A DNA stretch of 41,169 nt from an uncultured Planctomycetia bacterium (GTDB lineage Bacteria > Omnitrophota > Gorgyraeia > Velamenicoccales > JABMQK01). This document shows, one piece after another, positions 3,813-41,169 of this stretch. Made by a program: the position numbers and the translations under genes. The notes beneath the pieces are model-generated. The model saw only the letters and a program-made list of their open reading frames with translations. It had not been told where the DNA came from and did not search any database. Position 1 is the first letter of the stretch. Every line of letters starts with the position of its first letter. The stretch is from NCBI GenBank assembly GCA_964520705.1, contig CAZFPS010000005.1, forward strand, positions 1-41,169, in the 5' to 3' direction.

Positions 3813-3852
3813 TTAAAATTTTTGTAGTCTAATTAATAAGGGGGTGAAACAA

Positions 3853-4600: not shown

Positions 4601-4602
4601 TT

Positions 4603-4959: not shown

Positions 4960-4960
4960 A

Positions 4961-8638: not shown

Positions 8639-8871
8639 AGAGAAAAGGTTATAAAATGAGATTAAACTTAAAAAATATACGCGGGACAAAAAAAGGAATA
8701 TCCATGCTTGAATATGTCACCGTGATAGTCATAATCGTATCGGCTCTATTGGCCATGAGGTTTTATTTAAAGCGCTCCATAAGCGGCAGTTTTCGTAGCT
8801 CAGGAGACGCGTTTGGCCAAGGCAGGCAGTATGAGCCAGGCGTAACAGTAGAGACTAAGAGTTGGAATTAA
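8632..8871 (+). CDS. type IV prepilin-like protein
   Basis: 'KKG|ISMLEYVTVIVIIVSALLAMRFYLKRSISG...GDAFGQGRQY'; alternative start at 8656. Confidence 0.85.
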   Translation: MVERKGYKMRLNLKNIRGTKKGISMLEYVTVIVIIVSALLAMRFYLKRSISGSFRSSGDAFGQGRQYEPGVTVETKSWN

Positions 8872-8872
8872 A

Positions 8873-9757: not shown

Positions 9758-9766
9758 GGGAAGATT

Positions 9767-26300: not shown

Positions 26301-29300
26301 CACCGCTTATAATACAGCTATAGGGCAAAGTTCTTTCTTGTCACAAGATGAAAAAGAAGCCTTGATTCTTCCTATAGGAGAAAAAATTTCTGATGCTCAG
26401 GCTTTTGATATAGCGGTTAAACTATCTGAGACTAAAATGGTAGATTTAGCTAACTATGATAGGAGAGGCTTAGATTCAATTGTTACAGTAGGAAATGCCT
26501 TGAGAGGATTGTGGGCTGCGAGCGATATTTCTGGAAGAACGGATTCAAAACCATTAGACCGTGAGAACTTTAATTACTTAAGGGATAACTATGGCATAAC
26601 CCAAACAGGTGCGCATAGAGTAGCATTGGGATTAATTGATAAGGATCAAAATAGCACTGCCCACTCAATATTAGCAAAGTCATTAGAAGACAGGGTTAGT
26701 GCCCTAAGATTGGTTGAGAGATTTCATGATTCAAAGATGCTGCGTCCTTTAGTGCCGCTGGTCAACAAATTATACTCGACTAAGTTGTATGGTGGCAAGG
26801 TGTCTGATTTAATTGATTTATCCGATGCCTTAGTAAGTGGCAGCGAATTAGATACATCTATTCTTAGCTTGCCTGGAGAATTAGCCAATATTTATATGCC
26901 ATCCAGGCTTGACTTCAACTATAGTTACAATGATTTAGTCGAATTAGGCGTGACAAAGTTTAATAAGATAAAAGTAGCAGACTTAGCTAAGCTTGGTAGC
27001 AAAAACATAACTAAAAAGCAGCTTTCAAAATGGGGAGTTAGCAGTAGGGAGATAAAGAAAGTTGCTAAAGAAATAGGCAAAATAGCTAAGTCTAAGAAGC
27101 AGTTAACATTTGAAGCATTGGATAAGTTTGTAGAAGATAAAAGGATTGATCAAAGAAATTTGAATACATTAGCCTTTGGCTTGGGCGCAGGAACTCATCC
27201 AGAAATTCAGCTCAATCTGATAAAACTAAGAGGATTTATCAATAAAACAGACTTAGGCCGCAGCTTTACCTCTGATAAGCTTAAGAGAATTGATTTAACG
27301 CATACTACTGCATTTGGATTAGCAGATGGTGTTTATAACTATTCTACTTCTTTAAAGGCTAAGCCTAAGAAAAAAGATATTGACGCTGTTCACATAGATA
27401 CAGCTATCACTCAGGGCATCGCAGGACACACTAGCATTCCAATGACGAATATGAATAAATTCGCTAAGTTGTACACATACAAAGAACGTGAAACTTTAGA
27501 TATGGGTGATTTGCAAGATTTATTCTTTAAGCTTACTGATAAAATATTGCCGGTGGAGAACCATGATATTATCATTCAAAGCGGTAATTTACTGGAGGAT
27601 GTATCGTTTGACCTGCAGCAGCTTACCCTACGCTTGAATATAAATATTAATAAGACACTATCCCATCAGCTCGCCATTGGCAGAGAAGCTATTAGGCTAG
27701 GGCTAGAAAATAATAATATAGAATTGCGCTCCCAGAAGGCCATAGAGACTGCAAAGACGATTATCGGAGAAAATCATAATCTGCTTCACGTTTGGAACTC
27801 AGTAAAGCCGAAGAGAGCGCTGTATGATATTCCACAGAAGCTGCTGGATGTTAAGGATAAAATTGAGCTACAGGCCAACGAAGAAATAGAAGGAAACGTT
27901 GATGATTTGATAGATGCTACTCTTTCAACCTTAAAACAATTAAGTCCAGAGTTAGATATCCCCGCAGATTTTAAAATAGACAGAGATCGTTTAAGAGCAT
28001 TTGTTTTGAGTTATAAAGTGAAATTGATGATGCCGGAAGAGATGCGGCATGCCGGCCCGGCGGAAAGTATTTCAGATAAAAATTCTAATACTATAGCATT
28101 AGATATTAGAAATATAGATGAGCAGGGTTTAGGGTTAAAGCCATTTACGCGTTCTTTAATATTAGGCCATGAGCCAATTCACGTCATTTTGCAGGGAGTC
28201 GCCAATCAGTTAGAAGAAAATATTGGGAAAGACCAAGAAGACCAATTAGATAAAATTAGGAAATTAAAAATAGGACAGCTAGAGAATGAACCTATTGTAT
28301 ATTTGCTTAATTTGCGCACTATGGGTAAGATTTTTGGCAACAGAAGCAAGGAGGTAACCGCTCCAGCTGTAAAACAGCTTATAAGAAAAGTTGTCCCTGG
28401 TAGCAAGGGTAGATTAAGAGATTTGCCAAAGAGCAACAAAGAACTTTATGCAAAATTAAAGGGGCTAGAACAAAGACATGGATTGGGAGTTGCAGCTAAT
28501 TTAGAGGAGTATGCTTTAATAGATTTACCAGATTTAGGGCAGGCAGATAATGGTCTTACTCCTCCTAGAGGAACTACACCGCCAATTGGGCCGTCTTCCG
28601 GCGGAGGATTTGGTAATGATGGTCCATCTATAAGTGATTATACGCCAGCTCCTCCGATAGATCTACTATCACCACCATCGCCAGATAGACCATTAGGAGG
28701 TAAGTCTTCACCGCTATCAATGCCTAAGATGGGCAAGGTAGATATCAAGAGTATCGGAATTGGATTAGCTCTGGCTGTGATTTCTATGCTGCCTTCTTTC
28801 GGTGGAGATCTCCAAGCGCAGCAGCTGCCTGAGATACCCGAGATAGGTTCTTCTTATCAACAAGTAGGAGCATTAGAATTAGATGCTTTACCGTCTTTGC
28901 AGTCATTATCTTTTGGTCCATTATCCTCTGCAGGATATCAATCTTACTTGCCTACTTCATTTATGTCGATGTCTGGTATTGATAATCAGAAGTGGCTTGT
29001 GAAGTTAGTTCAAGACATGGAGAAGCTGAAAGCGGAATTGAGAGAAGTGGAGATGGAGAAGGCACAGGCAAAGATGGATCAGATTCGGGAAGATATTAAG
29101 AAAACCCGTATAGAATTTGCAAAGATAGCAAAGGAGATAAGCTCTTTGAAAATCGATCCTCCGGCGACAATAAGTTCACTCGAGACCAGCATGTCTTCGC
29201 CGATGGCACAACAGCAATTACCACAGCCCAAGCCGATAGCCGTCTCCTCGCCGCTCGTGCCTTTGGCACTCGAGACTTCGTCGGAACTCGCTCTCGCTCG

Positions 29301-32300
29301 TTCCGACTCGCCGCTCGCTCGGCCCGGGAAACCAAGATTCTCCAGATTTGCTAAATTCTTAGGTGTGCTTGGCATAGCTATTGTGGCTAATCTTTGGGGA
29401 TGGGGCGCAGGTGCAGGCGCGGCAGACAATTCCGCCGCCGAGGCTAGAAAATTGCTGGCTATGCAGGCGCAGGCACCAAAGCCAGCACTCGGGATACTTG
29501 AGAGAAAGGCATTGGACTATCTCGAAGATATTAATTTCACTCATATAATTTCCAATGCGCTTGCCAACGCATCACCAGAGGAGCGATATGACATAGTCTT
29601 TAGATTAGCAGATGGATTAACAAGAGCGAATAATTATTATGCAGTTAAAATTGCACGGAAATTTGCATCTATGCCATCAGACGATCCTCTCAAAAGTGTG
29701 GGTGTGGTTGCTTTAGAAGATATGACTATACCTAATGCCAGAGTAGCTCTTGAGGGCATTTTGAATTCTCACCCTCGCGGCAAGGGCAAGGCTCTTGCTA
29801 TGATTATTGAGCCGGAACCCGATGATCCCGCAATGGAAAATTTTGTTAATTTAGAGGTGAAGCCATTGAGGCTGGCTGGCTATGAGACTGTTGTTGATAC
29901 AATAAGAGGCGATACAATAATAGGCCCATTTGGAATTATTGATGCCGTTGCTTCTATAGGCGACAATGGCGAGATGTGGAATAGTTTGCTCATATCTTCA
30001 CATGGTAATTCCAAATTTATATATTTTCCTGTCTCCAAAATGCATCTAACTGTTGACGATTTTAATTTTATGGAGTCTTTTGGTTTAGATCGTTATGTCG
30101 ATCCTAATGCACTGCTTATTAATAGCAGCTGTTATTCATTAGATACGACCATTGTAGATAATTTTGGCAGAGGTATGGGGCATCTTTTAGGAGTCGAAGA
30201 GGTTCAGGGGGCTGTGGATAGAATAGAAGCAAGGCTTACATTTTCTAATAATAGGTGGGGTGTGAAACTATCATCAATCTATGGCGAAGTTGCTTCATAT
30301 CACCCTGTTGATAGCACGCTTATTGTTAGACCATATGAGAATGAGAAAGCGCCTCGTAGTTTTTTAATAGACAACGCGCAGTTAAATGAAATCATTTATT
30401 ATGTTATTGACGATCTCAGAGGATACGAAAAATTTATAAGACAACAGCCGCCAGGAGAACAAACTGAGCGGTTTGAGATATTTAATAAGAGGTTAGCCTT
30501 ATCTTATACGCTATCTGCTGAATACTTACTCGGTGTTGATACCAGCAGTGTTGATATAGGCAGATTTTATGCTAAGTCCTTACAATTATTTCCTGAATTA
30601 GAGGATAGTTTAACAGATTCCGAAATAAGATTAGCTGAACAAGCAGGGCATACAAAACCCATTGATTTTTCAAAATATATTGATATAGGCATTGGGAGTG
30701 GTCTGTTAATATTAGTAGCCCTTGGCGGTATAGTGAGTGCATATAATAATATAGGATGGGGTGGTTTAGCATATTATAGGCGCAGAGAAGGAGATGGGCA
30801 GCAAGCCGAGGTCAAAAACGTTGCAAACAAACGATCCGCCTCCTCGCCGATGAGCGTAACCACGGAAACACGGAAAATTAACAGAAGCACAGGTGGTCTT
30901 AATGATTTAACACTTAATCTTTCTTTCGATAACAATGGAGCGCCGCAGCTCGTCTTAGAACAAGAAGGCAATAGTTCGCCAGTGGCAGTTGCAGAGATAG
31001 ATTCTTATAATCCTCAAACTCGTACGCTTAGATTTAGAGATATACAATCAAGTAGCCCGTTAGCTACACAAGCATTAGTCACCAAAGTATTAGATCAGGG
31101 AATAGCTGTTAAAGTTGAAATCGGCGCACCAATATCCAGCCCAACAGTAGTATCAAACATCGACGCTATAAATAGAGAATTACGTAATTTAATACTTAAT
31201 TCTTCAGAGTTAAAAGCAGTCTCTTCGCCTATTTTTGTAGGAAGGTCACCGATTACTGGCGAGGCAGTCCATAGATTGGATATCAGCAGAAATGATATCA
31301 GTAAGATTTCTTCATCTCCGCTAGCTGAGCAGTTGAAACAACTGCCGTCTTCTTCTCCAATAGCAGTGGATTCAATTAGAGTTCCGCAGAGCAATATAGT
31401 TTCTTTAAGAAGCGCGGTAAAACAGATTGTAGAAAGAGGAGATGATTTCACAGAAGGAGGATTTTTGTTGTTTGGTCGTCAGGACGGAGAGAATTATTCT
31501 ATAAGTGGAATAGTTCCGATAAAAAGATATAGTGATCAGCGCTATGAAGGTTTTGTACCTGACAGAGAAAGCATGGTTAAACAGATCATCGAGCATGCTG
31601 TCGCAGATATAAAATTGATCGGGGTCCTACATTTGCAGCCTTTTGACATGACAAAGTTATTGCAAAAACCAGGCCCGAGCTGGGAAGACCGTATTGGCGA
31701 TGACTTCCTTCTTCCTGAATTAAATGATAAGATCGCGAAAGTTCCTTTAGGAATTGTAATTGAACCTACAGTTCCTAGGGACATCCCTGTATCTCAAATA
31801 GCAAAATTTGTCCCTAAAAACTTTAGCACATATTTCTATTTGCCGGTAAGTAAAACAACAAGAGAGATCAAGATTATTGGCGATCCTGTTGATTTTGAGC
31901 ATTGGGTCAGTCAGGCCAGATTTGCTTCTTCGCCAATTAAGCAGATTGAGCCATTAGCTTTACCTGTGTTAACAGCAGACCCTATAAGTTCGCCAATACA
32001 AGCTGGAAGAATTGATATTCCAACAGGAGTTGAAGCTCAATTAACTGCGCAAATATTCTCAAGCCCGGTTCGCGCACCACCATTAGACGCAGATAATTTG
32101 CGTGTATCTGCGTTAGATTCGCGAGAATTTGCGTTAACAAGCTCACCACTCAAAGCACAAATAAAAACCGCCCTGCCATCCACAAGCTCACCACTCATAG
32201 AAGGCTTCAGACCTTCAAGAACCCTAAAAGAGCTAGAAGCTGAAAATTTCAGACAATTAGGGCAAGAATTCATTAAAGAGGTGATTATTGGATTTTATGT

Positions 32301-35300: not shown

Positions 35301-38300
35301 CAATAGAAACGTAGGATTCTACTTAACAGCAATTATTACTAATAGGATTCCAGATTACATTACATTAATTAGTCACCACGAAAAAGACGTTAGAAAAGCT
35401 ATCGATGTTTTAAAGCAGAACCAAGCAATAGCTTTTTATCGGCTTAATTTTGGAGTTGAGACTTTAAGTCCGTATTTTATAGAAGAAGGAGTCATTGTTG
35501 AACCTGAAAGAATAGCTGCGCAAGATGCCATTGCGGTTACAGAACGTCTAGTTGCCAATCCTGATTTAGTAATTGAAGACGATATAAGGGTTCTTGCTGG
35601 TTTTAGTAGGTTAGCCCAGGAACAGTTTAGAAACAGAGAATTTTCAGAGATATCTGATGCTGCAAGCACAATAGAGGCTTATCTAATGAAGATAGGTGAT
35701 TCATTGAAAAAGAAGATTTTTTCTGCTGATGGCGTAAGAGAACAAATAGCAAGAGAACAAATAGCGATGGCATGGGAAATGAATCGCTTGTCTGCTATAC
35801 TTAGAGGTCTTAAAAGAGCGCTTAGTGAAAAGGGCGTTTCAGTCTTCCCTGCTTCTGCCACCGCTTCTTTAACTTCAGAAGAATTATTTCAGTCCATCTG
35901 GCTTTCATCGTCACCTGTAGCCAGCTTGCTATCCGCCTCCAGCCCTTTGCTTCGCTCAGGACGTCAGCCCCAGGAGGAATATAACCTTGATAATTTAGCT
36001 GGTGCCTCCAGCCCGGTTGAAAAATCCAAATATGATAAAGAGAGGGATGCAGCCATAACCAAAATAGCACGCCTAGTCATAGCTCTAAGGCCTCAGGGAG
36101 GTAACTTCTATAAGGCTGTAAAAGAGTCGATGATGTCTCAAGGCAAATCAGGACGAGAGGCATGGAGTTTTGCAAATTATGTATTTACCGACAAAGGAGA
36201 ATTGAAAATTGACCCTTACAAATATGTGCCACGCAGCAGTGAGTTTGATGGCACTATATTAGAAGGCAAAGACCCAGAATTCGAGGGCACTATATTAGGA
36301 TACACCGATTCAAGCTATCCCGCCTCCAGCCCTTCGCTTCGCTCAGGACGTCGGCCCCAGGAGGAAAATAACCCTGATAATTTAGCTGGTGCCTCCAGCC
36401 CTATGAAGGAAAATGCTCTGCCGATAGATGCAGGAGCTGATACAAGAGTTAATAACAAAAATGGCAAAGTTAGTGGTTTAGCCAGCCCAGTGAAATTAGA
36501 TACAAGATACATAATGCATGATGCAGGAATGACAGGTAGCTCGCCAATGGTCTTAGATCTCATAAGGTTAGGACGTGCACAAAATATTTCACCGAATCCA
36601 TTTATGGCGGCTGGCTCATCGCCCCTCCAAGAAACCGAGCCAGGTCGTCAGAGCACGAATTCCCGCAAATTCCACACTAATACACACGAATATTCATTCG
36701 AATCCACATTCTTCGCTTCCGCTCGGAATCCTTCGAGGAATCCTGAGCAAGGCGAAGGACCAATATCCTCACCAATAACGATAATTAATAATAATTTAGA
36801 TAGATTTTCTTCACCATTAACAAAGGCCAAAAATGTATTATTAGGAAGCATAAGAGGCTTATTTGTAAGGCTTACCCAAGTAATTTCGTTTCGAGCAATA
36901 CGTAATTTTATATTATCTATATTACTAACCATATCAGTAGGTATGTCTTTCATTTATTTTCCAAAAGGAATTATTTCTATCGTTTATCCTCCTAAAGATA
37001 ATCTTACAGTATTGATTAGTTCAGAATATAAAGAGGGCTACGTATTGGATTATTTCTTTTTCAATACGTATGGGGCAGTATATTTTGGATTGAAAGGAAT
37101 AGAATTAGATATAATCTACGCAGCAACAAAAAATGATTTAAGAACTGTATCAGGTGATTCGACTAAACCTAACATAGCCGTTATGGGTCATGGAACATGG
37201 AATGAATGGATAGCTTCTGATAGCGTCGTCACAGAAGATGATATTAAGAGATGGTATTCTTCAGGAGAATTCCCTAGGAAAGAGTCGATTATCCGCTATA
37301 CATGCGGCTCAGGCCGTTTTCTCTTTGATGAGCAATTTGGCCATCATGCAGTTGAGGATCCCCAGACACAGATTAGAGGTTTTGATTTCACGGTGTCTCC
37401 CATAGAATTTTTAGTAAAACCCACAGCTTTTTCTCAAAAAGAATTAGATTCAGAAAAAGGTAATTGGCTATTGAATGCTATGAGAGCTCTCAGAGGAGTC
37501 GAGGATCCTATCACTACTACTGATTATATGAGAGCTGATAAAGAAGTTGAGGATACTATCTATGGAAGAATGATGGGAAATCCCAGAATGCTAAGAAAAT
37601 TTAGATTACCATTATATATAGTAGGGGAAGAAGAAGACCACAGAAATATCAATGGTTCTACTTCATTGCAGACCATCCTAATCTATGACCAAGCCTATTC
37701 CGATAGTTCTTCTTCACCTTTAACAGAAACCAATTTAACAAAAACCACGCAATCTTCACCTGTAACCTACCGTGGCAGGTTGAGTGAGGAGATTGTAGCC
37801 AATTCAGGGGTAAATGTTAGCAGAATCACCCCCTCCAGCCCTCTGGTTTTAGGTAAATTTTTAAACTTTGACAACAGCTCCTCACCTACCGTGGCAGGCC
37901 TCGTTAGAAATATTGTTAATAAATTTAAGAGATTTAATTTGATTATTTCTACCGTGGCAGGTATTGGGGAACACACCAATCCAGCAGGGTTTGTTAGAAT
38001 TACCCCCTCTAGCAGCCCTCTGGATGAAAATTTTGACAACAGTTCCTCACCTACCGTGGCAGGTATTGGGGAACACACCAATCCAGCAGAGGCTGTTGTT
38101 GGCAACACCCCCGCCATTAGCAGCCCTCTGGATGGGGTAAGAATTTCAAGTCCTTTGAATTCAAACGAATATTTAGAGGATATGACAAAACGCATAATCA
38201 ATGAATGCAGACAAGACAATTACTCTTCTTTGAAATTAAGCTGGGAGATGGCAGTATATGATTATCAGGAATTTATAAAGCATGCCGCTGCCATAAATGC

Positions 38301-41169
38301 TGCGCTTAAAGAAATTTTAAATTCTAAAACACATCGAGCTCAGAGTTTTGTCAATTTTATGACTTTTCTAAAGAGTGCCATAAATACAAGAATAGATATG
38401 ATTGAGCATTACCAGGCACCATTATCAGCGACAGGAGAAAATAACATACTTTCAATTAAGCATCTTATAAGTCGCTCTGAGGATATAGATAGTCTTTTTG
38501 ATACGTTCAAAGATCTTATGAATCCCTCAGATACTTGGTTTATTCCTTTATTTGATGAGGAAAGAAAGAAGATCATTTCGTCAAGGGGTATTTTAGCTAC
38601 TAGGACTATAGGTACTTGGGGTTGTTCTACTCAATGTGACCACTGTGATGACGCAAGCCTCATCCAAGTCACACCTTCTCCATCGAAATGGCTAAAGGAA
38701 AGCAAGGAGTATATGTTTAAACTAGACGAATTCCACAACGGCTCCTTTATAGATTATTATTGTTTTGTCTATGATAAATATGGTAGTTATGTGGCGTTGT
38801 TATTTGATAGAAATAGTATAATAACTTCTCCATTTGAGATAGGTTCTGTACCAGATAGGAGTTTAAAGAACTTATTAGAAATGGGTAAATTAGATTATTT
38901 TGTGTTAAGTGTTGCTCCTAGCGCTTTGATGCGTAGAATTGGAATTGAGAGATATTATGAATGTATATATCACATTATAGAATTACTTAAGAAAAATAAA
39001 ATTTCCTATAAATGTTTCTTACATATGTTTAGGCGTCAAAAGGATCCTTTAGATATTAACAAAATCCCAGAGAAGGCTAAATCGCTATTAAAAAATGATT
39101 ATATTGAAAGAGACTTATTTAGATGTGGTAGACTTTGGCAGTTAATAGAAAAAGGTTCAATAGATTCGACTTCGATAGGTAATCTCATTAATAGTTGTTC
39201 TACATTTTTTACTCATAAAGATGTTGGTAGTTCTTTTCTGCTTCCTGATGGTCAAATTGTCTACGGAGAAAACTATAGACAGGGTATTTTATGTCGTATA
39301 TATAGAACTGTCCCGGGGCTCGAATCTATAGGCAGAAGGTCTATTAAGTGTTGGTATTGTAAATTGGATTGTAAAGGAAAATCAGAAATTGGATGCCCAG
39401 GGCGACAACAGGTATTTAAGCCATGGAATTTGTCTGCTGATGGCGGATTTCTTGAAGATAAAAACAGTTCACCATTGAGCCTGACACAATTGGATGAGTC
39501 CTTAGCAACCTTCGTACCGATAAGTGAGTTAATAATAGGAGATAGAGAGACTATAAGACAAACCAGTTCCCCACTTACCGTCTCGCCCGCCACAAATCTT
39601 GGCGGGACTTCGTCGTCGCTCGGCAAAGCTTCCTTTGCTTCGCTCAGGACACTTCGAAGGACACTGAGCGCAGTCGAAGTGCGCTCCTCCTCGCCTGCGG
39701 CTCGGGGAAATTCTGATGCAACTCTAAGGGGTATCCTCGGTGATTTTTCCGTCGGAAAAACTGGCTCGTTACGTAACATGTTACGTAACAACCTGGAAGG
39801 TAATGCTATCGAATTCAGCTCCAGCCCGGTTGAAGGATCAAATGAGGTGCCTGCCAAATTTGAATTCCAAGCAAAAATAGGGAATCAGATGACTTTAGGG
39901 GTAGTAATAATAATACTTAGAGAAATTACGAGAGCAGCAAAAGAGGATAATCTAATAGAGGTTATAAGACAATTATATAGACTAAGAACACCTCTTACAA
40001 CGACAAACTGGTTAAAGATACCAGAAGAAATAGAAAGGGCAAAACAGATAATAATTAGCCACCATATTAGAAGTTTAGATGATTTGATAAAATATACCGA
40101 AGCTGATGTGTTAGGCTTATCTGAAGCTGTTAAGATATTTCTAAGAATATATAAAAAGTTGTTAGAGAATCGTATTAATATTACCTTAGACCGCATTGCT
40201 GAAGGCACAGCTTTTAAGCGCAATAAAATGGGCGATGTGTGGAAATATGAACTGCGGCCTATTTTAGAAGCCTCAAAGCACAATTGGCAAGATGAAACAA
40301 TACTGGTCGACGATAGTAGGCATATTAACAAAATTGAAAAGGATGAATTAGCTGCTTTAGAAGATATGGAGGATGTAATACGTGATGATATCGATAAAGG
40401 CAATGTACTTATTTATGATGAACTTGTGGAATTGGTTAGAGGATTGCCAACTCCACCATACGGTAAGCAACTACCAAAAGACAAAATAATAACCTTATTA
40501 GAAAAGATTGGGCTCAGCAGAGCACAATTCAATAGAATAATAAAGAAGAGAGAGAAAGACAAAAGTAAGGTACTAATTATCGAAGAAAAAGAGGAGGAGA
40601 TTCCCGATCTTGAGGTAATTATAGGGATGAGCGAACCGGGGAAAATTGAATATATATATAAAGTTTTGGGAGATATCCGTAAAGGTGCAATAGAGGGAGC
40701 ACAACAAGGAACCATAAGCAATCTCAGGTCCCTAACACTTAAATGTGTAAAAGAGGCAATAAATAGAAATTTATTTAAACTATTAATTGGCAGAAGTAAT
40801 TTACCAGCCAGTGCATCAAAAGAAGATATCAAGAAAGCCTATCTAGAAGGAAAGAGAACCCGTGATAGCCAAATACTTAAAGGAGTTGAAGATATGCAAC
40901 AAAAGAAAATTAGGGCAGCTAAGTTACGCCGCCAAAGAGAAATTGCCTTCCAGATTTTAATGAATGATGAGTTGAGAGTTGTGTATTTAGGAATGAGACC
41001 AACTCATATTGATATCTTTGAATCCGCTAAAGCAATTACTGCATCTAAAACTACTAGTAAGAAACGCAGTGGTAAAGGTTCCTCACCAATAAAACAAACC
41101 AGCTCCTCACCTACCGTGGCAGGCCCCGTTAGAAATATTGTTAATAAATTTAAGAGATTTAATTTGATT
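11308..41169 (+). CDS. giant secreted/membrane multidomain protein, at least 9,954 aa, 3'-truncated by the window edge
   Basis: ATG 11308 in frame +1 begins MISQARTKTGGFKTWMRVVALTVLVIFTPQQIAWA|IDY (Sec signal, AxA site). Every segment I translated is open, through to ...KRFNLI at 41169. The ORF track shows no closed frame +1 ORF here, as expected if there is no stop. Confidence 0.93.
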   Translation, partial: MISQARTKTGGFKTWMRVVALTVLVIFTPQQIAWAIDYDWRTIWRASQMQSSAASSPAMTIPYAALKSAGFEKQLAFNIKESLNSLRSSNAQSVLFSNDVVVERTNRAAITEDSIDSIYKQLVDSNNDIITCGAYSLFNMMLAYGLTSISDKQKTEKENSPSILDIANTIILIDLLSDPDLLPTFRENQLEVSFYSLIKAAEAYGMKLVPFHLETYKKDLESINKLVSFPFIATIDEPHTVLVKQIDKNGVLVIDNDVERLIALEEFKDRFMGYCLAIEVAKDPSIKVISPYDARSIKINRRSRQYKITTFNDLFPEPNWQDQFLSLAANLLSAGLGGKGHSRNVANQIFASKISQLATNVAVNNWGWKPKNAQIFGSAVGGGIAGFNSPGSTFLKGAAQGAAQGYATTVAYKWLKNTAFYKNNPEIGMQAVGMIGSTMSTLGLSIFTKQGMPGAIEANKFAMAKGFAGGVFDLGIQYSASQGWLGKAFEKNPTFSRVLGQSASGWFSRNDGLSTSKFLGKQALSAGVSLGLDALGGEYDKKTNKNRWGMTPTQMAAVTYGGTAFLEAGLARSFNIFDFKKDGMWDLMKNNFINNVALNMNPGQYGMVKTGRKILNKDTGEFVDEQAFDLYAGSMHLSRLGEFSGVGYFEGQVDLAVEDGGYASWKELKQDRGSINLLPSLSASMVRQTASVLHTAATNTAVNIIDRKLIKPFIAHANWQKKQHRGPMALVGGAEQEFADVGLVPTEIDISQKDIEDIYNGKINSVTLRSKDAPNEILGVYKIDRETEEITIINFANDNASTTFKLKKGQTPIMLLADAVAGNLPHIELTALSENAYLQKAEYSRGIGGWILDKLGLWDPAFEPDTIIGQRLREDKKHWFDPILMTAVLKHNEHQLQLDLLSGMKGTQKLTAWEVYNLKVEQKGLPIGLVSFVAAKGYESGIFVSIGKNKIQVPVASLSGTWVDKGKPQALFLFNADLRAKFEEEGNSLFHSNLPGQARETYGSISRVTGKDDAGREIELGWQIDKGSLVAFNLSTTSSSTFRNKGTTDPLIEKEWIEALKSSPSESTPLEDQFGYEETVNDVNRVFFSGFTVLGESGGIDAGRQRTFMSAGVDGFQGERTSVIEWQQYGSWNVSGSWDRLSGWDYVMDFSYKDKGAEHTGPQIWEGRKTTTQKREEGFIKGTAAFRPLYQPLQANIVPVAYNQQVDRGLGYLWDTTVDIYNKQTYGLSNTDIFMAENYFGGFQIQNEDRKKMLSSGQMIGYLKDQGATDSVAEAFEDVISFAGDGESGDRSRHTFNMMYQDNSGTYSQNPLSVVEDKSGDGKWTGTLYLLNLDLNRNGDSLNAQIMRSSVGKDGTIIQQIDIFDMKEGERQNQFSLSADSQKRQDIVTEGDGLHAVIITPGEESMPINAAEIEALTGSFEQADGKVVETGLLINENFSTSLTGWAIKSDRENVGGWDNTNKVGFDFGDGIKEKDIIEQAETITDETPVNHLLVNVGKDGGTKALIEAWGIDIDDKKNLQNEGVPRRGRFVLKESGDHQVAIVDNLPTITQHSDYRFDNTGAPDPLTGWWAFDTSEEDGSTANLQFGESMFPDNINERIGVEYAIIKSINSEGNYADAITSIMHFDRANPLTWQTPKTTLEDGTILTLPSGWRVQGADTVGEVQQLIDDGKIKLTTAKDAPNLGGVINRLHAFEKINGQWQPYMEGHGEISLGVVTDADNVERSPFGDRKYALELQADIKGEVLHPGLYVSVDPTKRAEAMEAASVAMSRTDPQTGETQIYNSADDVDPSAPTSFSLEGSSWDGSNTQIQVLGLSESGNHRVSGDISYLLSGYNFTPYENIGTGSKIEIAKGMPITTVSPGMQTINPATGTHSISQYVVTNFETAEDTQIEFGDLALKKDGTIDRVNTTTGGISVGANTTGVLFDDVSLTTPSVFGDARVINTMYDKEGGFLGRDVAEINFGDKDNSVALTTLDPKYDVKFYRYRDQENQAEIQGDYSGIVVENLQEGQTSAFAGSATTVGAKRLDSLKGGIEEVAVQWTGAIIGERNPQVLTPSIFGTDSSGTSSRQEAFSDGVVILGKLFDEKYTVDEQDATFEGNPLTFHVTAGDWDEVSSGDLSMLAPTGESWSVEQKSLFNNYVINTGLADLSGYKQPAQDIFDAEFQEADRVSVTPLIRTRQDGSGASVLEGNIPKQSYIVRSKEGSPRLGMESTVFLTDKTLFRFRSIDNTIDRTIGLDLLQPAIDENIAPVFQGLANLSFGAKSKYLKAFNHLRLFSKNMYSSKVAKVCAMALSEQLRSTPEFSDALGRALADLPLATLEIDGAEVAKQSIIDAFEKFMSNPSSRNPDAFAESVFIALNSNIPEVVQINYEEIENNGEVNNVAYQMLEGSLGKLNHVPLSNSRYLDDKHWDDEQQAFIVPVEWLAKDKDSGLGYRLIPENEAFPSFSFNPLSGGKGGEAGTGITLSEKFNQDVPYFSIYTSSERINPLATFEVFQKTGTWQFNTSGGFLSVAGQPIRDIAAKEGVKEITFDNKGRAKFDVGLIQTLVFNEPSAVVSTDTQEGLGLVYKKGSQWESKQISEDAIGFVPLVGGKPLGANDSISSHIGVSSLYNNSDLAGTFRESVTGPGPVIMPEKVSYWAGQGFVLSFDMADGENARNFAFLSNSPQPSNVEQKGKIADFHPVVGNENLSRSNLDRLPYSVVVTDAKVTDKTVKLSGTLPDSPAAHKRIEGDVLRDAFIVTPFDNTALPAGFIADTALSMNAGYTLPSSITNAQLQEVSQERVLGSNNGEGSIDIGRGTSIYQGNLYFKDGGYSIGQGAQGVIKQESKVKGQSTTSILFDVDFSLLGNGTQPINVDFAYHQSASSRIKPNDLWKFTETQQDINNIGRIYTYLINFDESSPGVFGVAKWNEITEKRIVKRKNDMGIYYLEEFGTGTYAPLRELFIDLDNDFNFYGEVVSIEQAGSKWESKDQRDKIEFNNLRPNVTPEAFYQNSEDPNLIGFSFSEDSGRSLIYQDQSGNDVNFDLNRYGSFAGSTMLEGQGPFIGDFTTYRPQGEEGSLWEGAKNIASSAWSLLKGGSGDGSVPEATAYTDKATGWTHYQGKLNLDVQAPFSTTSSVSVNFQNAVFNIPEGKELVGFSTNDYGEAQMSTYSSKTKDGRIIFDSAGEIDERIDVGLRNDQILYDWSLIGGGRMYKPGSERYRPGFDPESTGPRELSISAGPSWWENTLENVTNYAVLALLVINPVVSTLAMPDASKQAIQGVKNDWTLAVYKAEERRRFTSEIGIGTTHALSEFIVTPEGRMVLLMPLAALGETAIAANYLARLTTISQAIGRAITFGKVASPTLQALVGASAVTGTTAVVGGLGFNAATDKGLTEDLVSYAVKGTLLPVAAYAAYTRIGAQLFLAGSEIYKLATTGEHLTLGEMEAISIASLIPAGRIGKYTSSAFQGTRTGMAIQWLTRPASLASSTWGKIGYAAGSSATLATIGTLGTEGFTRAYSGKGLTWKQRGTIFSTLFFGNVARLSVAGLTQWGAKGIESGLGLGNQGAIIQLGSNTGKLGVVRSGLLRVARPVLGGLNCGASLGFVGGGVGLMTHRWEEDQVEIIEGFVVPQDPSLWKTFGSTLSVFGKSAKIPALFGTGIGFVGGLGLGNVLKPTSGWSYAIWPALALTGRGVYDGGRYALGNRELSRLEAKPDKTPQDVARINELRNKVYFEGKNYVDIATLAVGLRFLKGSNLINPATSTLSNLWRHAKLMGFGAGLNVGKDLAMGYANKWFDISFGESIEIKDANGAPVYLKPGLTFGQQYSEGSFFASALRGAVWAEIGSYAVNNASTVLGRASGKYGALRPQPIEGSPLLRHKLPLSGADRLGIEGLIGAVKWTYIGPAFSVFGGAWKSSMYALASGGELPNGTLFNIDSAIDFNNDGKIQDNESVLIPLKSREGMRNLLGSIRESPISGVVLHPMIGIASRNPVTASSGIGRAMEKTQSMFGTNRITSEAGNLFRIAGFVSAMDVALEMGSTISGPGESTGYNDLGTRYTRLNRQNLATGIYGTERSAASWGLLFNLPTFTGPRATGLVDNQGRPLDSEGNAIPQKTSLYDHTGREIDSNGNPIPVPGKPVKLVGATGQPIVKGRQVKHSKASEFYEKVYGSSVLPSDSHADFAEKMVRMSEILSSYEGPTLRILEQGDTGVGKDSVTAAYQNFATGKRSVLMVPTNANAKNAAAEAKNAFAQLGLHGKSVEIIELGKEGSFAKLSTNPDVVILTDINAKSFASFLRDRNSLLSRFGREIFEDSNVIIPEWIYSPDLQTPSGNTGGLSQIKSSIEGRSMRRQVNREAKIYKELKLWEHIEFEIPIDGETIYNPHLSETGINKYVERHKADNLTALKSQKGGEEKVAAIQSLVQAHAYAIEAGSKNVVPIRGKTIRLVERYGYQYDVVLHDRIKAHAESMMGAKLAREAGRKDFGKLDPLHKYSAGRFDRISTGDVFDVAERFGARSIQAWSAGIDKIEARELQSIHGFQRINDRGLPERYSLTEGRIPFDSQRNFRFSEKSLDQEINGMVQLAIRDKQGPLVLEENMPGHSWDDILMSTVRAARKSGADVLVLEYSGEMKEIKTSRLNVDRAMRTAKKVELWGNKQKDTIGALDRVANGEKVVLLMARGHLRGTNVKLGARGTQRILNDLKSTETLTAQGKDRVRGLYEEIDKGKFDVNFEKPFTNVDLNAEAGKRGMEIVVFGAPRDMTFKRYSEAMKVNDVTFAKEGRYQTRMEYTLNMAHRFNRDILNRVDSKAARKLIEDADWELRKTNEIWLHLDLKGELGRAPDRLQETLNRSIDSLRKIYNKDGRLYKSLSEELRNFVDTELQPRISTAIEWGREVKGAKRLDAMTTPEEARIALGHHTRIEDLPKHTPRTMEGQVVRSGVKGVREVLQIIESSTIESGRDLMNIAPAVGYQTFLDIEFQDDDPNNKQRVQWLANSQNNATQGGVFTHDLAFVYTYAGLKEIARSPSQVTAYNTAIGQSSFLSQDEKEALILPIGEKISDAQAFDIAVKLSETKMVDLANYDRRGLDSIVTVGNALRGLWAASDISGRTDSKPLDRENFNYLRDNYGITQTGAHRVALGLIDKDQNSTAHSILAKSLEDRVSALRLVERFHDSKMLRPLVPLVNKLYSTKLYGGKVSDLIDLSDALVSGSELDTSILSLPGELANIYMPSRLDFNYSYNDLVELGVTKFNKIKVADLAKLGSKNITKKQLSKWGVSSREIKKVAKEIGKIAKSKKQLTFEALDKFVEDKRIDQRNLNTLAFGLGAGTHPEIQLNLIKLRGFINKTDLGRSFTSDKLKRIDLTHTTAFGLADGVYNYSTSLKAKPKKKDIDAVHIDTAITQGIAGHTSIPMTNMNKFAKLYTYKERETLDMGDLQDLFFKLTDKILPVENHDIIIQSGNLLEDVSFDLQQLTLRLNININKTLSHQLAIGREAIRLGLENNNIELRSQKAIETAKTIIGENHNLLHVWNSVKPKRALYDIPQKLLDVKDKIELQANEEIEGNVDDLIDATLSTLKQLSPELDIPADFKIDRDRLRAFVLSYKVKLMMPEEMRHAGPAESISDKNSNTIALDIRNIDEQGLGLKPFTRSLILGHEPIHVILQGVANQLEENIGKDQEDQLDKIRKLKIGQLENEPIVYLLNLRTMGKIFGNRSKEVTAPAVKQLIRKVVPGSKGRLRDLPKSNKELYAKLKGLEQRHGLGVAANLEEYALIDLPDLGQADNGLTPPRGTTPPIGPSSGGGFGNDGPSISDYTPAPPIDLLSPPSPDRPLGGKSSPLSMPKMGKVDIKSIGIGLALAVISMLPSFGGDLQAQQLPEIPEIGSSYQQVGALELDALPSLQSLSFGPLSSAGYQSYLPTSFMSMSGIDNQKWLVKLVQDMEKLKAELREVEMEKAQAKMDQIREDIKKTRIEFAKIAKEISSLKIDPPATISSLETSMSSPMAQQQLPQPKPIAVSSPLVPLALETSSELALARSDSPLARPGKPRFSRFAKFLGVLGIAIVANLWGWGAGAGAADNSAAEARKLLAMQAQAPKPALGILERKALDYLEDINFTHIISNALANASPEERYDIVFRLADGLTRANNYYAVKIARKFASMPSDDPLKSVGVVALEDMTIPNARVALEGILNSHPRGKGKALAMIIEPEPDDPAMENFVNLEVKPLRLAGYETVVDTIRGDTIIGPFGIIDAVASIGDNGEMWNSLLISSHGNSKFIYFPVSKMHLTVDDFNFMESFGLDRYVDPNALLINSSCYSLDTTIVDNFGRGMGHLLGVEEVQGAVDRIEARLTFSNNRWGVKLSSIYGEVASYHPVDSTLIVRPYENEKAPRSFLIDNAQLNEIIYYVIDDLRGYEKFIRQQPPGEQTERFEIFNKRLALSYTLSAEYLLGVDTSSVDIGRFYAKSLQLFPELEDSLTDSEIRLAEQAGHTKPIDFSKYIDIGIGSGLLILVALGGIVSAYNNIGWGGLAYYRRREGDGQQAEVKNVANKRSASSPMSVTTETRKINRSTGGLNDLTLNLSFDNNGAPQLVLEQEGNSSPVAVAEIDSYNPQTRTLRFRDIQSSSPLATQALVTKVLDQGIAVKVEIGAPISSPTVVSNIDAINRELRNLILNSSELKAVSSPIFVGRSPITGEAVHRLDISRNDISKISSSPLAEQLKQLPSSSPIAVDSIRVPQSNIVSLRSAVKQIVERGDDFTEGGFLLFGRQDGENYSISGIVPIKRYSDQRYEGFVPDRESMVKQIIEHAVADIKLIGVLHLQPFDMTKLLQKPGPSWEDRIGDDFLLPELNDKIAKVPLGIVIEPTVPRDIPVSQIAKFVPKNFSTYFYLPVSKTTREIKIIGDPVDFEHWVSQARFASSPIKQIEPLALPVLTADPISSPIQAGRIDIPTGVEAQLTAQIFSSPVRAPPLDADNLRVSALDSREFALTSSPLKAQIKTALPSTSSPLIEGFRPSRTLKELEAENFRQLGQEFIKEVIIGFYVDKMTLIFSDAVLADRFSGDIDSIAQKAKDLVGALLDIRDKQVFAREEWSRYKPVISILTTLSLGDPADIDIINKGFSPIVEYLALLASDSSPKQNIIVEGFSRLRHILNKFNDWLSNQKSIELGHYLGDEEREIIAIDRQDLVEFEYPPVVSSPLLEPAVLGRNDINNIGKAGVGGFGIGGAVTIGGGAGVGGGMSSPMGSGTSGFGRSGAGIGEMGSNLSGANKLLKLEIKPIEIIPEISQQSSPIGETFIDFKGRFDRASAPSSPVKSNRDRADQKPILPSQVPGTMPFMPLPMSTPIQVPAQNASSPVIDLAVPALSASPSSLFGPSAQVPIGELVMSERVKAQQTSVGYARGPTVSSPLASFSARNWQKDKRTPLQPVFTAIALSLITSDLKRSYDGKGPLNRKPDSWMPTVYTYKALVSALNSAALNIGNGLKAEATAVAGWVKVALRQIKAQIATETAEAGTIAAMPIAAISSPAIAGYSRIANIGTMAPIKDSAYFANLEDNSKTLNSSPLTELGRNFENIVISKIPGAQSVTWKFAFSRPISDLTSALVTQEYNEGLFASSPTIDLTNEPTNKLTNYNRRGVFVSAGTNFHESYTNPHKYSLKFSSSPLSLKANIANLYNNKVKLKFVYNLAAQNFRNSLKDDKDFLKDILGYAWKMTIISAIGISIMVAVTIRHGPKETNCMLNSRNENIEVVINVDFGGRLRSDSYANERAQSIFNRIIETNKLPPTYKLFVVNEGRDAYAKFGNIILPLWMLQIFDDEMVSWIISHEIAHFTLESSNNKNADKLGFEYAKTAGYLKEIKSPKKFRRTVEKESREFLKIRPTGRLCGSSCGSSPVNNLTNYISASKFASLSASSPATSLLPDSPVLADARSFETFLYTEPMRQALGNIIQILDIESVESAFVTHVTAAPGMTEPYFVKSERKTQSECPLVPFEVEHETVSIHSHPFIPVGVESSDGSISQKVEVAILPGCEDFDVFIRQNGRGVLGIIWGNRNVGFYLTAIITNRIPDYITLISHHEKDVRKAIDVLKQNQAIAFYRLNFGVETLSPYFIEEGVIVEPERIAAQDAIAVTERLVANPDLVIEDDIRVLAGFSRLAQEQFRNREFSEISDAASTIEAYLMKIGDSLKKKIFSADGVREQIAREQIAMAWEMNRLSAILRGLKRALSEKGVSVFPASATASLTSEELFQSIWLSSSPVASLLSASSPLLRSGRQPQEEYNLDNLAGASSPVEKSKYDKERDAAITKIARLVIALRPQGGNFYKAVKESMMSQGKSGREAWSFANYVFTDKGELKIDPYKYVPRSSEFDGTILEGKDPEFEGTILGYTDSSYPASSPSLRSGRRPQEENNPDNLAGASSPMKENALPIDAGADTRVNNKNGKVSGLASPVKLDTRYIMHDAGMTGSSPMVLDLIRLGRAQNISPNPFMAAGSSPLQETEPGRQSTNSRKFHTNTHEYSFESTFFASARNPSRNPEQGEGPISSPITIINNNLDRFSSPLTKAKNVLLGSIRGLFVRLTQVISFRAIRNFILSILLTISVGMSFIYFPKGIISIVYPPKDNLTVLISSEYKEGYVLDYFFFNTYGAVYFGLKGIELDIIYAATKNDLRTVSGDSTKPNIAVMGHGTWNEWIASDSVVTEDDIKRWYSSGEFPRKESIIRYTCGSGRFLFDEQFGHHAVEDPQTQIRGFDFTVSPIEFLVKPTAFSQKELDSEKGNWLLNAMRALRGVEDPITTTDYMRADKEVEDTIYGRMMGNPRMLRKFRLPLYIVGEEEDHRNINGSTSLQTILIYDQAYSDSSSSPLTETNLTKTTQSSPVTYRGRLSEEIVANSGVNVSRITPSSPLVLGKFLNFDNSSSPTVAGLVRNIVNKFKRFNLIISTVAGIGEHTNPAGFVRITPSSSPLDENFDNSSSPTVAGIGEHTNPAEAVVGNTPAISSPLDGVRISSPLNSNEYLEDMTKRIINECRQDNYSSLKLSWEMAVYDYQEFIKHAAAINAALKEILNSKTHRAQSFVNFMTFLKSAINTRIDMIEHYQAPLSATGENNILSIKHLISRSEDIDSLFDTFKDLMNPSDTWFIPLFDEERKKIISSRGILATRTIGTWGCSTQCDHCDDASLIQVTPSPSKWLKESKEYMFKLDEFHNGSFIDYYCFVYDKYGSYVALLFDRNSIITSPFEIGSVPDRSLKNLLEMGKLDYFVLSVAPSALMRRIGIERYYECIYHIIELLKKNKISYKCFLHMFRRQKDPLDINKIPEKAKSLLKNDYIERDLFRCGRLWQLIEKGSIDSTSIGNLINSCSTFFTHKDVGSSFLLPDGQIVYGENYRQGILCRIYRTVPGLESIGRRSIKCWYCKLDCKGKSEIGCPGRQQVFKPWNLSADGGFLEDKNSSPLSLTQLDESLATFVPISELIIGDRETIRQTSSPLTVSPATNLGGTSSSLGKASFASLRTLRRTLSAVEVRSSSPAARGNSDATLRGILGDFSVGKTGSLRNMLRNNLEGNAIEFSSSPVEGSNEVPAKFEFQAKIGNQMTLGVVIIILREITRAAKEDNLIEVIRQLYRLRTPLTTTNWLKIPEEIERAKQIIISHHIRSLDDLIKYTEADVLGLSEAVKIFLRIYKKLLENRINITLDRIAEGTAFKRNKMGDVWKYELRPILEASKHNWQDETILVDDSRHINKIEKDELAALEDMEDVIRDDIDKGNVLIYDELVELVRGLPTPPYGKQLPKDKIITLLEKIGLSRAQFNRIIKKREKDKSKVLIIEEKEEEIPDLEVIIGMSEPGKIEYIYKVLGDIRKGAIEGAQQGTISNLRSLTLKCVKEAINRNLFKLLIGRSNLPASASKEDIKKAYLEGKRTRDSQILKGVEDMQQKKIRAAKLRRQREIAFQILMNDELRVVYLGMRPTHIDIFESAKAITASKTTSKKRSGKGSSPIKQTSSSPTVAGPVRNIVNKFKRFNLI
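11680..12140 (+). other. peptidase C39-like domain of the giant protein
   Basis: 'TCGAYSL' (Cys 11701), 'SFYSLIKAAEAYG', 'PFIATIDEPHTVLV' (His 12022), 'VLVIDN' (Asp 12070), 'EEFKDRFMGYCL'. Confidence 0.8.
20990..23490 (+). other. Gly/Ala-rich multi-helix hydrophobic (membrane) region of the giant protein
   Basis: Successive segments such as 'YAVLALLVINPVVSTLAM', 'ALVGASAVTGTTAVVGGLGF', 'GASLGFVGGGVGLM' and 'LFGTGIGFVGGLGLG'. Confidence 0.65.
23760..25620 (+). other. degenerate SecA-like (SF2 DEAD motor) domain of the giant protein
   Basis: Walker A-like GDTGVGKD (23845-23868), then collinear SecA landmarks: ATGKRSVLMV..AFAQLGL, FASFLRD, VIIPE..QTP, EARELQSIHG, RGTNVKLG, GMEIVVFG. Confidence 0.7.
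27960..28330 (+). other. zincin-like HExxH metallopeptidase motif region
   Basis: 'IALDI...SLILGHEPIHVIL' (HEPIH 28168-28182), with downstream 'ENE' as a possible third ligand. Confidence 0.5.
29780..30250 (+). other. caspase-hemoglobinase fold (clan CD) peptidase-like module 1
   Basis: 'LLISSHGN' (His 30001) and 'LLINSSCYS' (Cys 30130), each after a hydrophobic strand and 43 aa apart. Confidence 0.6.
31375..31900 (+). other. JAB/MPN-like module 1
   Basis: 'TEGGFLLFG', 'LIGVLHLQP', 'PSWED', 'LGIVI'; the second His of HxH is replaced by Gln. Confidence 0.65.
34400..34730 (+). other. M48 (HtpX/Ste24-like) metallopeptidase module
   Basis: 'DAYAKFGNIILPLWML..FDDEMVSWIISHEIAH...NADKLGFEYAKTAGY' (HEIAH 34630-34644). 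Confidence 0.75.
34950..35340 (+). other. JAB/MPN-like module 2
   Basis: 'VESAFV', 'VSIHSHP' (35155-35166), 'LPGCED', 'VLGIIWG'. Confidence 0.55.
35933..36401 (+). repeat. 82-bp direct repeat pair flanking a roughly 100-codon insert
   Basis: 35933-36014 versus 36320-36401, 4 mismatches; each copy begins and ends with GCCTCCAGCCC (ASSP). Confidence 0.9.
37000..37430 (+). other. caspase-hemoglobinase fold (clan CD) peptidase-like module 2
   Basis: 'NIAVMGHGT' (His 37189) and 'SIIRYTCGSG' (Cys 37303), 38 aa apart, preceded by a TM helix. Confidence 0.55.
38560..39420 (+). other. radical SAM-like module with SPASM/twitch-like Cys tail
   Basis: CxxxCxxC 'GCSTQCDHC' (38623-38646); later 'NSC...LLPDGQI' and 'CWYCKLDC...GCP'. 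Confidence 0.7.
40780..40992 (+). other. J-domain-like module lacking HPD
   Basis: 'LPASASKEDIKKAY' and 'AFQILMNDELRVVY' match DnaJ helices II and III-IV; there is no HPD between them. Confidence 0.55.

Follow-up and report, generated by a model that had tools for sequence, protein, structure and literature searches.

Ser-Ser-Pro as a border motif in giant open reading frames of one Omnitrophota clade, and its possible role as a polyprotein processing signal

In the MARTX toxins and the large clostridial toxins, a cysteine protease domain of clan CD (C80) processes the protein of which it is part, cutting strictly after Leu. The gingipain/HagA polyproteins of Porphyromonas, the adhesins of Mycoplasma hyopneumoniae (cut at S/T-X-F-X-D/E, after the F, in disordered regions), and the substrates of PPEP-1, with their repeated Pro-Pro, are large surface-related precursors cut at short, reiterated linker motifs; viral polyproteins and cyanobactin-type multi-core precursors of ribosomally synthesized and post-translationally modified peptides (RiPPs) yield a product divided at a reiterated short sequence that co-evolves with the protease. 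The element considered here is also short and reiterated: the tripeptide Ser-Ser-Pro (SSP) in a giant open reading frame (ORF) of an Omnitrophota bacterium. The ORF lies on a contig (C5, CAZFPS010000005.1) that was analyzed over its entire length of 41,169 nt, called the window below; the assembly (G000, GCA_964520705.1) has 1.88 Mb in 134 contigs and is 89% complete. The gingipain, adhesin, and PPEP-1 systems have few sites, a known protease, and products retained at the surface, whereas here there are dozens of sites, between cytoplasmic-type and exported enzymes. The viral and RiPP cases differ in that this is a cellular organism, with units of hundreds of residues that carry their own targeting signals.

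11308..41169, + strand: giant ORF of 9954 aa, without a stop codon and open at the contig end; head (aa 1-5790) SSP-poor, tail (aa 5791-9954) SSP-rich.

Within the phylum, the nearest described proteins are the “Archaeovorins” of West-Roberts et al. (2023; 10.1101/2023.11.21.568195), for which the main text proposes post-translational cleavage and states that the absence of cleavage-point information blocked the authors' approach. Features in common with the proteins described there are an N-terminal C39 domain near a signal peptide, many transmembrane (TM) segments, adjoining secretion genes, and, in relatives of the present genome, cell-wall-degrading modules (SLT). In the window, the C39 domain (PF03412, aa 188-279) is near an N-terminal hydrophobic segment, T2SSF and Tad genes are adjacent, and two of three loci with related heads are on Omnitrophota records. 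SecA, dockerin, and TSP3 domains have no Pfam match in the window, which gives only weak RecG-like matches; SecA_PP_bind is found in the sampled giant of one relative (G007). Whether giants with lengths from 10,000 to above 80,000 residues act as a single chain or as many cut proteins is treated as an open question in the main texts of the Omnitrophota papers. The string “SSP” does not occur in the main texts of 10.1101/2023.11.21.568195, 10.64898/2026.06.07.730766, or PMC10066038; their supplements, which may hold motif or proteome data, lay outside the search. A literature search returned nothing pairing Omnitrophota with polyproteins and, in the portions of the sources covered, only unrelated matches for Ser-Ser-Pro as a bacterial cleavage site. 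Relative to the Archaeovorin paper, the new elements are the motif, the lineage dependence of its flanks, and its association with internal export signals.

The reading favored here, at a probability of roughly 50%, is that [S/A/T]-SSP-[V/L/I/M] is recognized where autonomous protein units adjoin, most likely for endoproteolytic processing, and that the giant ORF encodes a polyprotein. SSP would then be a short linear motif marking the borders between such units in the giants of one Omnitrophota clade, and an endoprotease would cut the giant translation product there into many separate proteins. Cutting would probably take place on the cytoplasmic side, before export of the units with their own Sec, lipoprotein, or Tat-type signals: no two consecutive predicted TM segments of the tail lack an SSP between them, and some units have N-terminal-type export signals, which points to a reader acting before export. 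A polyprotein had been proposed in a preliminary description made from the sequence of the window alone; the border data given below fit it, and from them we infer that an enzyme cuts the chain somewhere within the motif.

The giant ORF contains 54 copies of SSP: three in the head, at aa 55, 1062, and 2895, and 51 in the tail, from nt 28705 onward. The preliminary description had estimated about 50 beyond 28.7 kb, and all 14 of the coordinates it quoted are indeed SSP starts; the two it had noticed in the preceding part should be three. Composition alone predicts 2.35 copies in the tail and 1.36 in the head. In 2000 shuffles of the tail the mean was 2.34 and the maximum eight, so that Ser/Pro composition fails as an explanation. 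As had been noticed, the next residue in the tail is usually hydrophobic (L 20, V 9, I 7, and M 5, or 41 of 51), the rest being T (5), A (3), K (1), and S (1). Near-variants in the tail are not enriched (TSP 1, ASP 3, GSP 0, SAP 1, SPS 3, PSS 5, SSA 1), and it is therefore the exact tripeptide that is selected rather than a general richness in Ser and Pro.

At the DNA level, a tandem repeat or a composition artefact could be ruled out. Serines at both SSP positions are encoded by TCN and AGY codons alike, and the direct repeats of the tail form five short families, with about four of the 51 SSPs arising from recent duplication and the remainder having no shared DNA; the shuffle maximum excludes composition. 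Selection on the peptide rather than on a DNA repeat, as originally suggested, is thus borne out. Spacing is bimodal, with 39 of 50 gaps no longer than 62 aa and 11 of 106-532 aa, and the coefficient of variation (CV) of the gaps, 1.45, was equaled in only 18 of 5000 random placements. With the motif itself masked, the flanks are somewhat more disorder-prone (TOP-IDP scale), the observed mean being reached in none of 5000 random sets. Entropy over 25 aa is 3.31 at SSP against 3.45 overall. Of the clusters in low-complexity linkers noted in the preliminary description, the clustering therefore stands, and most sites are in predicted coil (see below), but the flanks are only mildly less complex than the rest.

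The enrichment is restricted to giant frames. The 17 frames of at least 1500 aa in G000 have 241 SSPs where 17.7 are expected, with L, I, V, or M next in 81%, and, runs of X (= N) aside, SSP is the top over-represented tripeptide in eight of them. The 1189 ordinary frames of 150-1499 aa (419,748 aa in all) have 64 where 64.5 are expected, a ratio of 0.99, with L, I, V, or M next in 25%. In a sequence logo of 240 sites, the only informative flanking positions are -1 (S 40%, A 13%, T 12%) and +3 (V 27%, L 25%, I 23%, M 7%); the resulting five residues look like a site recognized in extended conformation.

SSP-enriched giants were found in relatives from at least four families. Homologous giants have 61 SSPs against 4.1 expected in G001 (same genus; all beyond aa 5493), 32 against 2.2 in G002 (same family; aa 5328-8952), and eight against 0.63 in G003; the more distant G324 has none in a 2521-aa head, followed by 14 against 1.9 and 18 against 1.45. 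In G000, G001, and G002 alike the SSP zone begins only past a head of ~5300-5800 aa, and the modules of the tail are mostly unshared, even inside the genus. A survey of C39-bearing giant frames in 24 further genomes of the phylum, with one to three stretches of 6666 aa sampled from each, added six genomes (observed/expected: G007 56/3.6, G005 25/2.2, G129 16/1.0, G218 14/1.1, G234 9/1.3, G269 8/1.0); in the sampled parts of the remaining 18 giants no SSP enrichment was found, SSP zones being regional. Where linkers of the window align with high-scoring segment pairs from G001 or G002, 18 of 33 window SSPs match an SSP, compared with 50 of 1420 other triplets conserved, at a background identity of 23-34% and in alignments that may be partly anchored on the motif itself. 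The SSPs are conserved islands in otherwise diverged linkers.

The flanks change with lineage. The small-SSP-aliphatic form, [S/A/T]-SSP-[V/L/I/M], is that of G000, G001, G002, G129, G218, G269, and G234. In two genomes from a sister family of the same order the sides are exchanged: G007 (n = 56) has L, V, or I at -1 in 43 of 56 and A, S, or T at +3 in 46 of 56, and G005 (n = 25) has L, V, or I at -1 in 17 of 25 and A at +3 in 16 of 25. An invariant core with side-swapping flanks fits the product expected of a co-evolving reader, unlike a generic structural motif. The preliminary description had suggested asking whether homologues use a linker motif that co-varies with the C39 sequence; co-variation with lineage is what was found, with no tie to C39 in particular.

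These data also bear on the possibility that SSP has no reader, being either structural punctuation (a linker breaker, or a Ser N-cap with Pro where a helix begins) or the kept scar of gene fusions. The units do resemble former independent genes, and the residues that follow SSP (M, V, L, I) are products of start codons, with NTG codons raised there to 34% against 20%; in a structure model described below, three of 23 SSPs immediately precede a helix start, as do 5% of positions overall. A structural motif would, however, be expected in ordinary proteins too, where the ratio is close to one; a scar would not stay conserved at more than half of the aligned sites amid such low identity, nor use both serine codon families; and in G007 and G005 SSP is followed mostly by Ala, a residue that is not the product of any start codon. 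We regard a reader-less SSP as very unlikely. Internal start codons were rejected as a general explanation on similar grounds, NTG following SSP in only 66 of 195 cases and Ala following it in G007 and G005.

Borders could be examined more directly in G005 and G007, whose giant ORFs (L056 and L033) contain recognizable domains: GT2, GT5 of starch-synthase type, UDP-glucose pyrophosphorylase (UDPGP), ATP-grasp, and a CoaE-like domain, along with lytic transglycosylase (SLT)/Tse3-like muramidases, so that cytoplasmic-type and exported enzymes are mixed in the same frames. None of 59 SSPs is inside the 12 Pfam domain stretches (1730 of 19,998 aa), where 5.1 would be expected (P ~0.006). Several of these domains start 24-26 aa past an SSP, and in other multi-module proteins the conserved start of the JAB-like module lies five residues after one.

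Export signals also follow SSP. When 399,517 aa of giants were scanned for Tat-type signals, defined as RR.F[LIVM] with a hydrophobic stretch, there were eight matches. All six in the SSP-using genomes G005, G007, and G218 have an SSP 4-29 aa upstream, three of them at exactly 4 aa, and three sites have the form SSP-x-x-[I/L]-S-R-R-x-F-L-K. Scanned as single units, five of the six match Pfam TAT_signal (PF10518), one of them above cut-off; SLT/Tse3 muramidase domains come after four of the six, and the next SSP is 241-366 aa on. These twin-arginine signals are deep within giant ORFs (L032 in G007, L056 in G005, L067 in G218). No Tat-type signals were found in the giants of G000, G001, or G002. 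On contig C17 of G000, a lipoprotein signal (basic stretch, hydrophobic stretch, LIGC lipobox) starts after an SSP, and in two proteins discussed below (P0016 and P0013) stretches resembling a full Sec signal come directly after one. A general link between SSP and hydrophobic segments was rejected as weak; it is clear only for Tat-type and lipobox signals.

An alternative in which the chain remains uncut is that SSP is a sequon for serine modification (O-glycosylation or phosphorylation) in linkers, for example stiffening or protecting them. The motif is short and serine-centered with one flanking specificity residue, and its sites are mostly in predicted coil and outside Pfam domains; general three-residue O-glycosylation sequons with an aliphatic position occur in Bacteroidota, and lineage-specific flanks would suit a co-evolving transferase or kinase as well. 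Nevertheless, if the TM segments span the membrane, SSPs would be on both sides of it and periplasmic glycosylation could not reach all of them; modification gives no reason for an SSP 4 aa before a complete Tat signal or directly before Sec-type signals; and the genome's ordinary secreted proteins do without the motif. Serine modification is accordingly considered unlikely. Two specific motifs could be set aside. The Bacteroidota sequon is D-(S/T)-(A/I/L/V/M/T), while the -1 residue here is S, A, or T rather than D, and Pro separates Ser from the aliphatic residue. For the sulfatase formylglycine motif (C/S-x-P-x-R), position +4 is A (8), V (7), T (7), K (5), or S (4), with R not among the commonest.

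Alternatively, SSP could be a multivalent docking handle by which a chaperone, a helicase or SecA-like ATPase of the head, or the secretion apparatus would hold or thread an uncut chain. The restriction of SSP to the region beyond a long head in G000, G001, and G002 is consistent with this, as are the SecA preprotein-binding domain from the sampled portion of the giant in G007, the Walker-A ATPase region in the window head, and the Tad/T2SS-type genes directly upstream, and reiteration with co-varying flanks is as compatible with binding as with cutting. What is hard to square with a single uncut product is the SSP-to-signal arrangement, and likewise the presence in one chain of cytoplasmic-type enzymes (GT2, ATP-grasp, UDPGP, CoaE) and exported lytic ones. 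Docking seems to us quite unlikely.

At the RNA and translation level, the motif codons have a signature of their own. The third-position GC content at codons -1 to +1 of the motif is 0.62-0.65, against 0.34 overall; the first Ser codon is TCY or AGY in 90%, the second is mostly TCG, TCA, or AGC, avoiding TCC and TCT, and Pro is CCG in 32-51%. This bias is seen in G000, G001 (L010-L013), and G002 (L014-L016), which are kin and so not independent observations. An origin in optimal codons, favored for accuracy, was rejected, because the codons favored at the motif are rare in 25 ribosomal-protein-like ORFs (TCC 9%, TCG 7%). The signature may reflect a component acting at translation, or else founder sequences; TCCTCGCCG or TCCTCGCCC accounts for 35 of the 241 SSP sites.

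A co-translational event at SSP, whether a ribosome pause, a chain separation comparable to viral 2A “stop-go”, or cutting by a ribosome-bound enzyme, would account for synonymous-site constraint exactly at the motif codons, -1 to +2, in three genomes and for the rarity of those codons in ribosomal-protein genes. Against it, the logo has no conserved upstream peptide for action in the exit tunnel, no 2A-like separation mechanism is to our knowledge known in bacteria, the three genomes are related, and founder sequences spread by duplication could explain part of the bias; it is extremely improbable. Only slightly easier to credit, and still highly improbable, is the fuller form in which the giants would be operons without stop codons and SSP a chain-separation signal at or on the ribosome (bond skipping or ribosome-coupled cutting), the rare-codon signature of the four motif codons included. 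Were that true, dozens of cytoplasmic enzymes and signal-bearing exported enzymes would be made separately from one frame.

Several observations weigh against endoproteolytic processing. Some SSPs are merely 8-60 aa apart, and cutting at each would release many short peptides without obvious use. A synonymous-codon bias is not predicted by a purely post-translational cut. In an AF2 model of aa 6500-7649, based on a 7-row alignment and with a mean pLDDT of 38, so that its map of order and disorder is weak, motif residues are 88% coil compared with 66% overall and 17 of 23 SSPs are in coil with pLDDT <40, but four of 23 are inside a small alpha/beta fold (pLDDT 60-71), at loops and helix starts. 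(A VIA-align search with the model found only common small folds: Alba/IF3-C-like, Z 9.6, and helical bundles.) The near-absence of SSP from folded modules claimed in the preliminary description therefore holds for Pfam domains of relatives, while in the window it depends on spacing and a poor model. The association of SSP with any hydrophobic signal-like segment is slight (15 of 90 against 9.5 expected, and seven of 93 against 5.7). A search for TatC found none in G005, G007, and G218, where the Tat signals occur; it is present in G000 and G002. The Tat-type signals may be relics or otherwise used, rather than serving the producer's own Tat pathway. The remaining points concern the enzyme: no S8 subtilase (PF00082) was found in G000, G002 (92% complete), or G003; a C39 domain is present in the 18 sampled giants without SSP enrichment; and the metal motif of the first JAB-like module in the tail (31354..31926) is degenerate (H-L-Q), with one metal ligand missing. 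The earlier description of SSP followed by a hydrophobic residue as a reiterated peptide-level signal is nonetheless upheld: it is giant-specific, aligned in relatives, avoids domains, and is followed by export signals.

A C39, clan CD, or zincin domain had been proposed as the processing enzyme, and none of them could be tied to the motif. C39 bacteriocin-processing peptidases act on double-glycine leaders, and there is a likeness in the conserved Cys and His and in two small residues in a row, [S/A/T]-S, like the Gly-Gly site. However, Gly is at -1 in only four of 51 tail sites, and there is neither information upstream of -1 in 240 sites nor a conserved leader helix. The C39 domain here, behind a signal-like segment, is probably outside the cytoplasm; a predicted complex of it (5-row alignment) with a 98-aa linker holding five SSPs scored 0.01, controls not having been run. 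SSP plus an aliphatic residue also resembles the Ala-Ala-Pro-Val/Leu/Phe substrates of subtilases, but a subtilase was dropped as the leading candidate after the three negative searches: PF00082 is present in G001 and in 12 of 41 relatives overall, without link to SSP use. Candidates within the ORF include a unit with an HSHP...SxxD pattern (aa 7861-8201), an M48-like module, two His-Gly...Cys modules, and the C39 domain.

The pair of His-Gly...Cys modules, for which Atlas gives a weak C80 lead (0.86), recalls the MARTX proteins, as does the general plan of a very large protein with several enzyme or effector modules; in the toxins, modules are released by cutting unstructured linkers beside an aliphatic residue. 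There are also differences. Leu follows only 20 of the 51 SSPs, V, I, and M together being as common, and in G007 and G005 the aliphatic residue is on the opposite side; there are 51 sites in place of a handful; and units here carry their own export signals, which those of the toxins do not. No C80 domain is matched by Pfam in the window, whether as the whole ORF or as single modules, and no RTX-type repeats are found by Pfam in the giant ORF.

A conserved border motif with lineage-tuned flanks provides candidate cut points at residue resolution, and SSP borders would allow in-silico splitting of giants for structure prediction, proteome searches for chain ends, and reporter design. Should cutting be confirmed, no other cellular polyproteins would come near these in size; they would be polyproteins mixing cytoplasmic metabolic and exported cell-wall-lytic enzymes, and a new way of organizing gene expression in a reduced predatory or parasitic genome.

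The SSP-rich tail can be divided as follows.

28705..28824, + strand: first tail SSP and a signal-peptide-like stretch, K-rich, IGIGLALAVISMLPSF, LQAQQ, directly after the SSP.
29194..29253, + strand: SSP pair (aa 5963, 5980).
29314..30789, + strand: unit with the shape of a complete membrane-protein precursor: a signal-like stretch (aa 6003-6039) preceded by D-S-P-L, then a clan-CD-like module and a TM segment.
SSHGN at 29995 and NSSCYS at 30121, + strand: clan-CD-like module of that unit (His-Gly...Cys pattern).
30685-30789, + strand: TM segment and RRRE tail of the same unit; next SSP at 30841.
30841..31359, + strand: cluster of seven SSPs (aa 6512-6682), four of them within the predicted small alpha/beta fold.
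31354..31926, + strand: JAB/MPN-like module with an SSP at each end; Atlas Prok-JAB clusters 0.92-0.94, no Pfam match.
31927..32193, + strand: cluster of five SSPs (aa 6874-6960).
32569..34149, + strand: 12 SSPs (aa 7088-7612) and two helical segments; several SSPs position-conserved in G001 and G002.
34288..34827, + strand: TM segment at 34288-34344, followed by a zinc peptidase module of M48-like type (PF01435, 22.4 bits, cut-off 20.3) with HEIAH at 34630.
34825..34896, + strand: SSP pair (aa 7840, 7861).
34888..35910, + strand: unit with an H-S-H-P...S-x-x-D pattern (aa 7861-8201; HSHPF at 35155), by eye like a JAMM metal site; no Pfam match.
35908..36816, + strand: nine SSPs (aa 8201-8501), including an 82-nt block duplicated at 35933-36014 and 36320-36401 (95%).
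36910..37707, + strand: TM segment followed by the second of the clan-CD-like modules (His-Gly...Cys, with MGHGT at 37183 and YTCGSG at 37297), by pattern alone, with no Pfam match.
37711..38154, + strand: cluster of eight SSPs (aa 8802-8947), with short DNA repeats.
38155..39468, + strand: Cys-motif unit (aa 8947-9387; CxxxCxxC at 38623-38646, Cys-rich end at 39349-39396), with a paralogue on contig C4; no Pfam match.
39466..39828, + strand: cluster of four SSPs (aa 9387-9505).
41080..41169, + strand: last two SSPs; the contig ends within a repeat of 37875-37944.

Between aa 5983 and 6511 the order is SSP, signal-like stretch, His-Gly...Cys module, TM segment, basic RRRE tail, SSP. The clan CD reading of this unit is drawn from the His-Gly...Cys pattern, one homologue (P0013), and the Atlas C80 lead, which is below trust level, and a MAFFT alignment of the module was poor. 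The Cys-motif unit resembles a radical-SAM enzyme with an extra cluster. The M48 match emerges once aa 7690-7840 are scanned alone, and is barely above cut-off; a Pfam scan of the whole giant ORF matched only C39. Neither NCBIfam nor a PDB sequence search gave a match in the tail.

Upstream of the tail, the window contains the head of the giant ORF and a set of neighboring genes.

3474..10654, + strand: Tad-type pilus genes upstream of the giant ORF, with small pilin-like ORFs and weak class III signal matches.
6320-8638, + strand: TadE/G-like ORF, part of this set.
8873-9757 and 9767-10654, + strand: two T2SSF TadB/C genes, part of this set.
11359..11415, + strand: N-terminal hydrophobic segment of the giant ORF (aa 18-36), with a K/R-rich start before it and an AWA end, read from the sequence without a predictor.
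11869..12144, + strand: peptidase C39 domain (aa 188-279; 31.8 bits, E 1.4e-7).

The N-terminal segment resembles a Sec signal peptide or anchor. Five related heads all share the C39 Cys (ITCGAYSL, nt 11695-11718) and the His (DEPHTVLVK, nt 12013-12039) without change, and the weak RecG-like helicase matches of the head are at aa 4164-4229. A PD-(D/E)XK nuclease gene (10836-11315; PF13366, E 7e-36) overlaps the start of the giant ORF by 8 nt.

At its other end the contig stops within a 70-nt direct repeat (41100-41169, 99% identical to 37875-37944), which probably caused the assembly break; the ORF therefore continues past the window. Contigs from two DNA runs match the tail piecewise, and the matched pieces are free of differences except at 39654, where a second groundwater run (X2) has an in-frame CGC insertion. 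The 17 open frames of at least 1500 aa in the assembly sum to 105,178 aa, or ~17% of the 1.88 Mb. They are on contigs C1, C2, C4, C5, C7, C8, C17, C35, and others, and several fill their contigs or break only at runs of N; possibly they are fragments of a small number of far longer genes.

Homologues of the tail are few. A search with the whole tail against proteins of 5474-17420 aa gave no match. With aa 6050-7249 as query against 1.84 billion representative proteins there were 21 matches, mostly via the JAB/MPN-like module. Five of these are SSP-enriched (observed/expected: P0002 10/0.46, P0004 10/0.52, P0016 8/0.74, P0013 6/0.45, P0014 4/0.29), and the other 16 have 0-3 SSPs each. With the helicase-like part as query, a scan of 300 genomes of the phylum identified one further genome (G268), in whose giant, which is without SSP, no alternative motif was found.

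Other short sequences recur elsewhere. In the sampled parts (L038-L040) of a 59,091-aa frame in G236, the top tripeptides are TPT and PTP (30 and 29, against 1.9 expected) instead of SSP. P0012, a JAB-module protein of 7277 aa without SSP enrichment, carries the pattern D-x(1,2)-M-M-[A/G/L] seven times from aa 3377 to aa 5911 (MM 9 against 3.3 expected), which may be the border motif of another lineage. P0003-P0010, P0016, and P0018 form a family of secreted multi-module proteins of 1200-3300 aa, with a common N-terminal domain and a C-terminal “GGIDFR.LP” domain; modules are inserted between these end domains, with SSP as separator in some members only.

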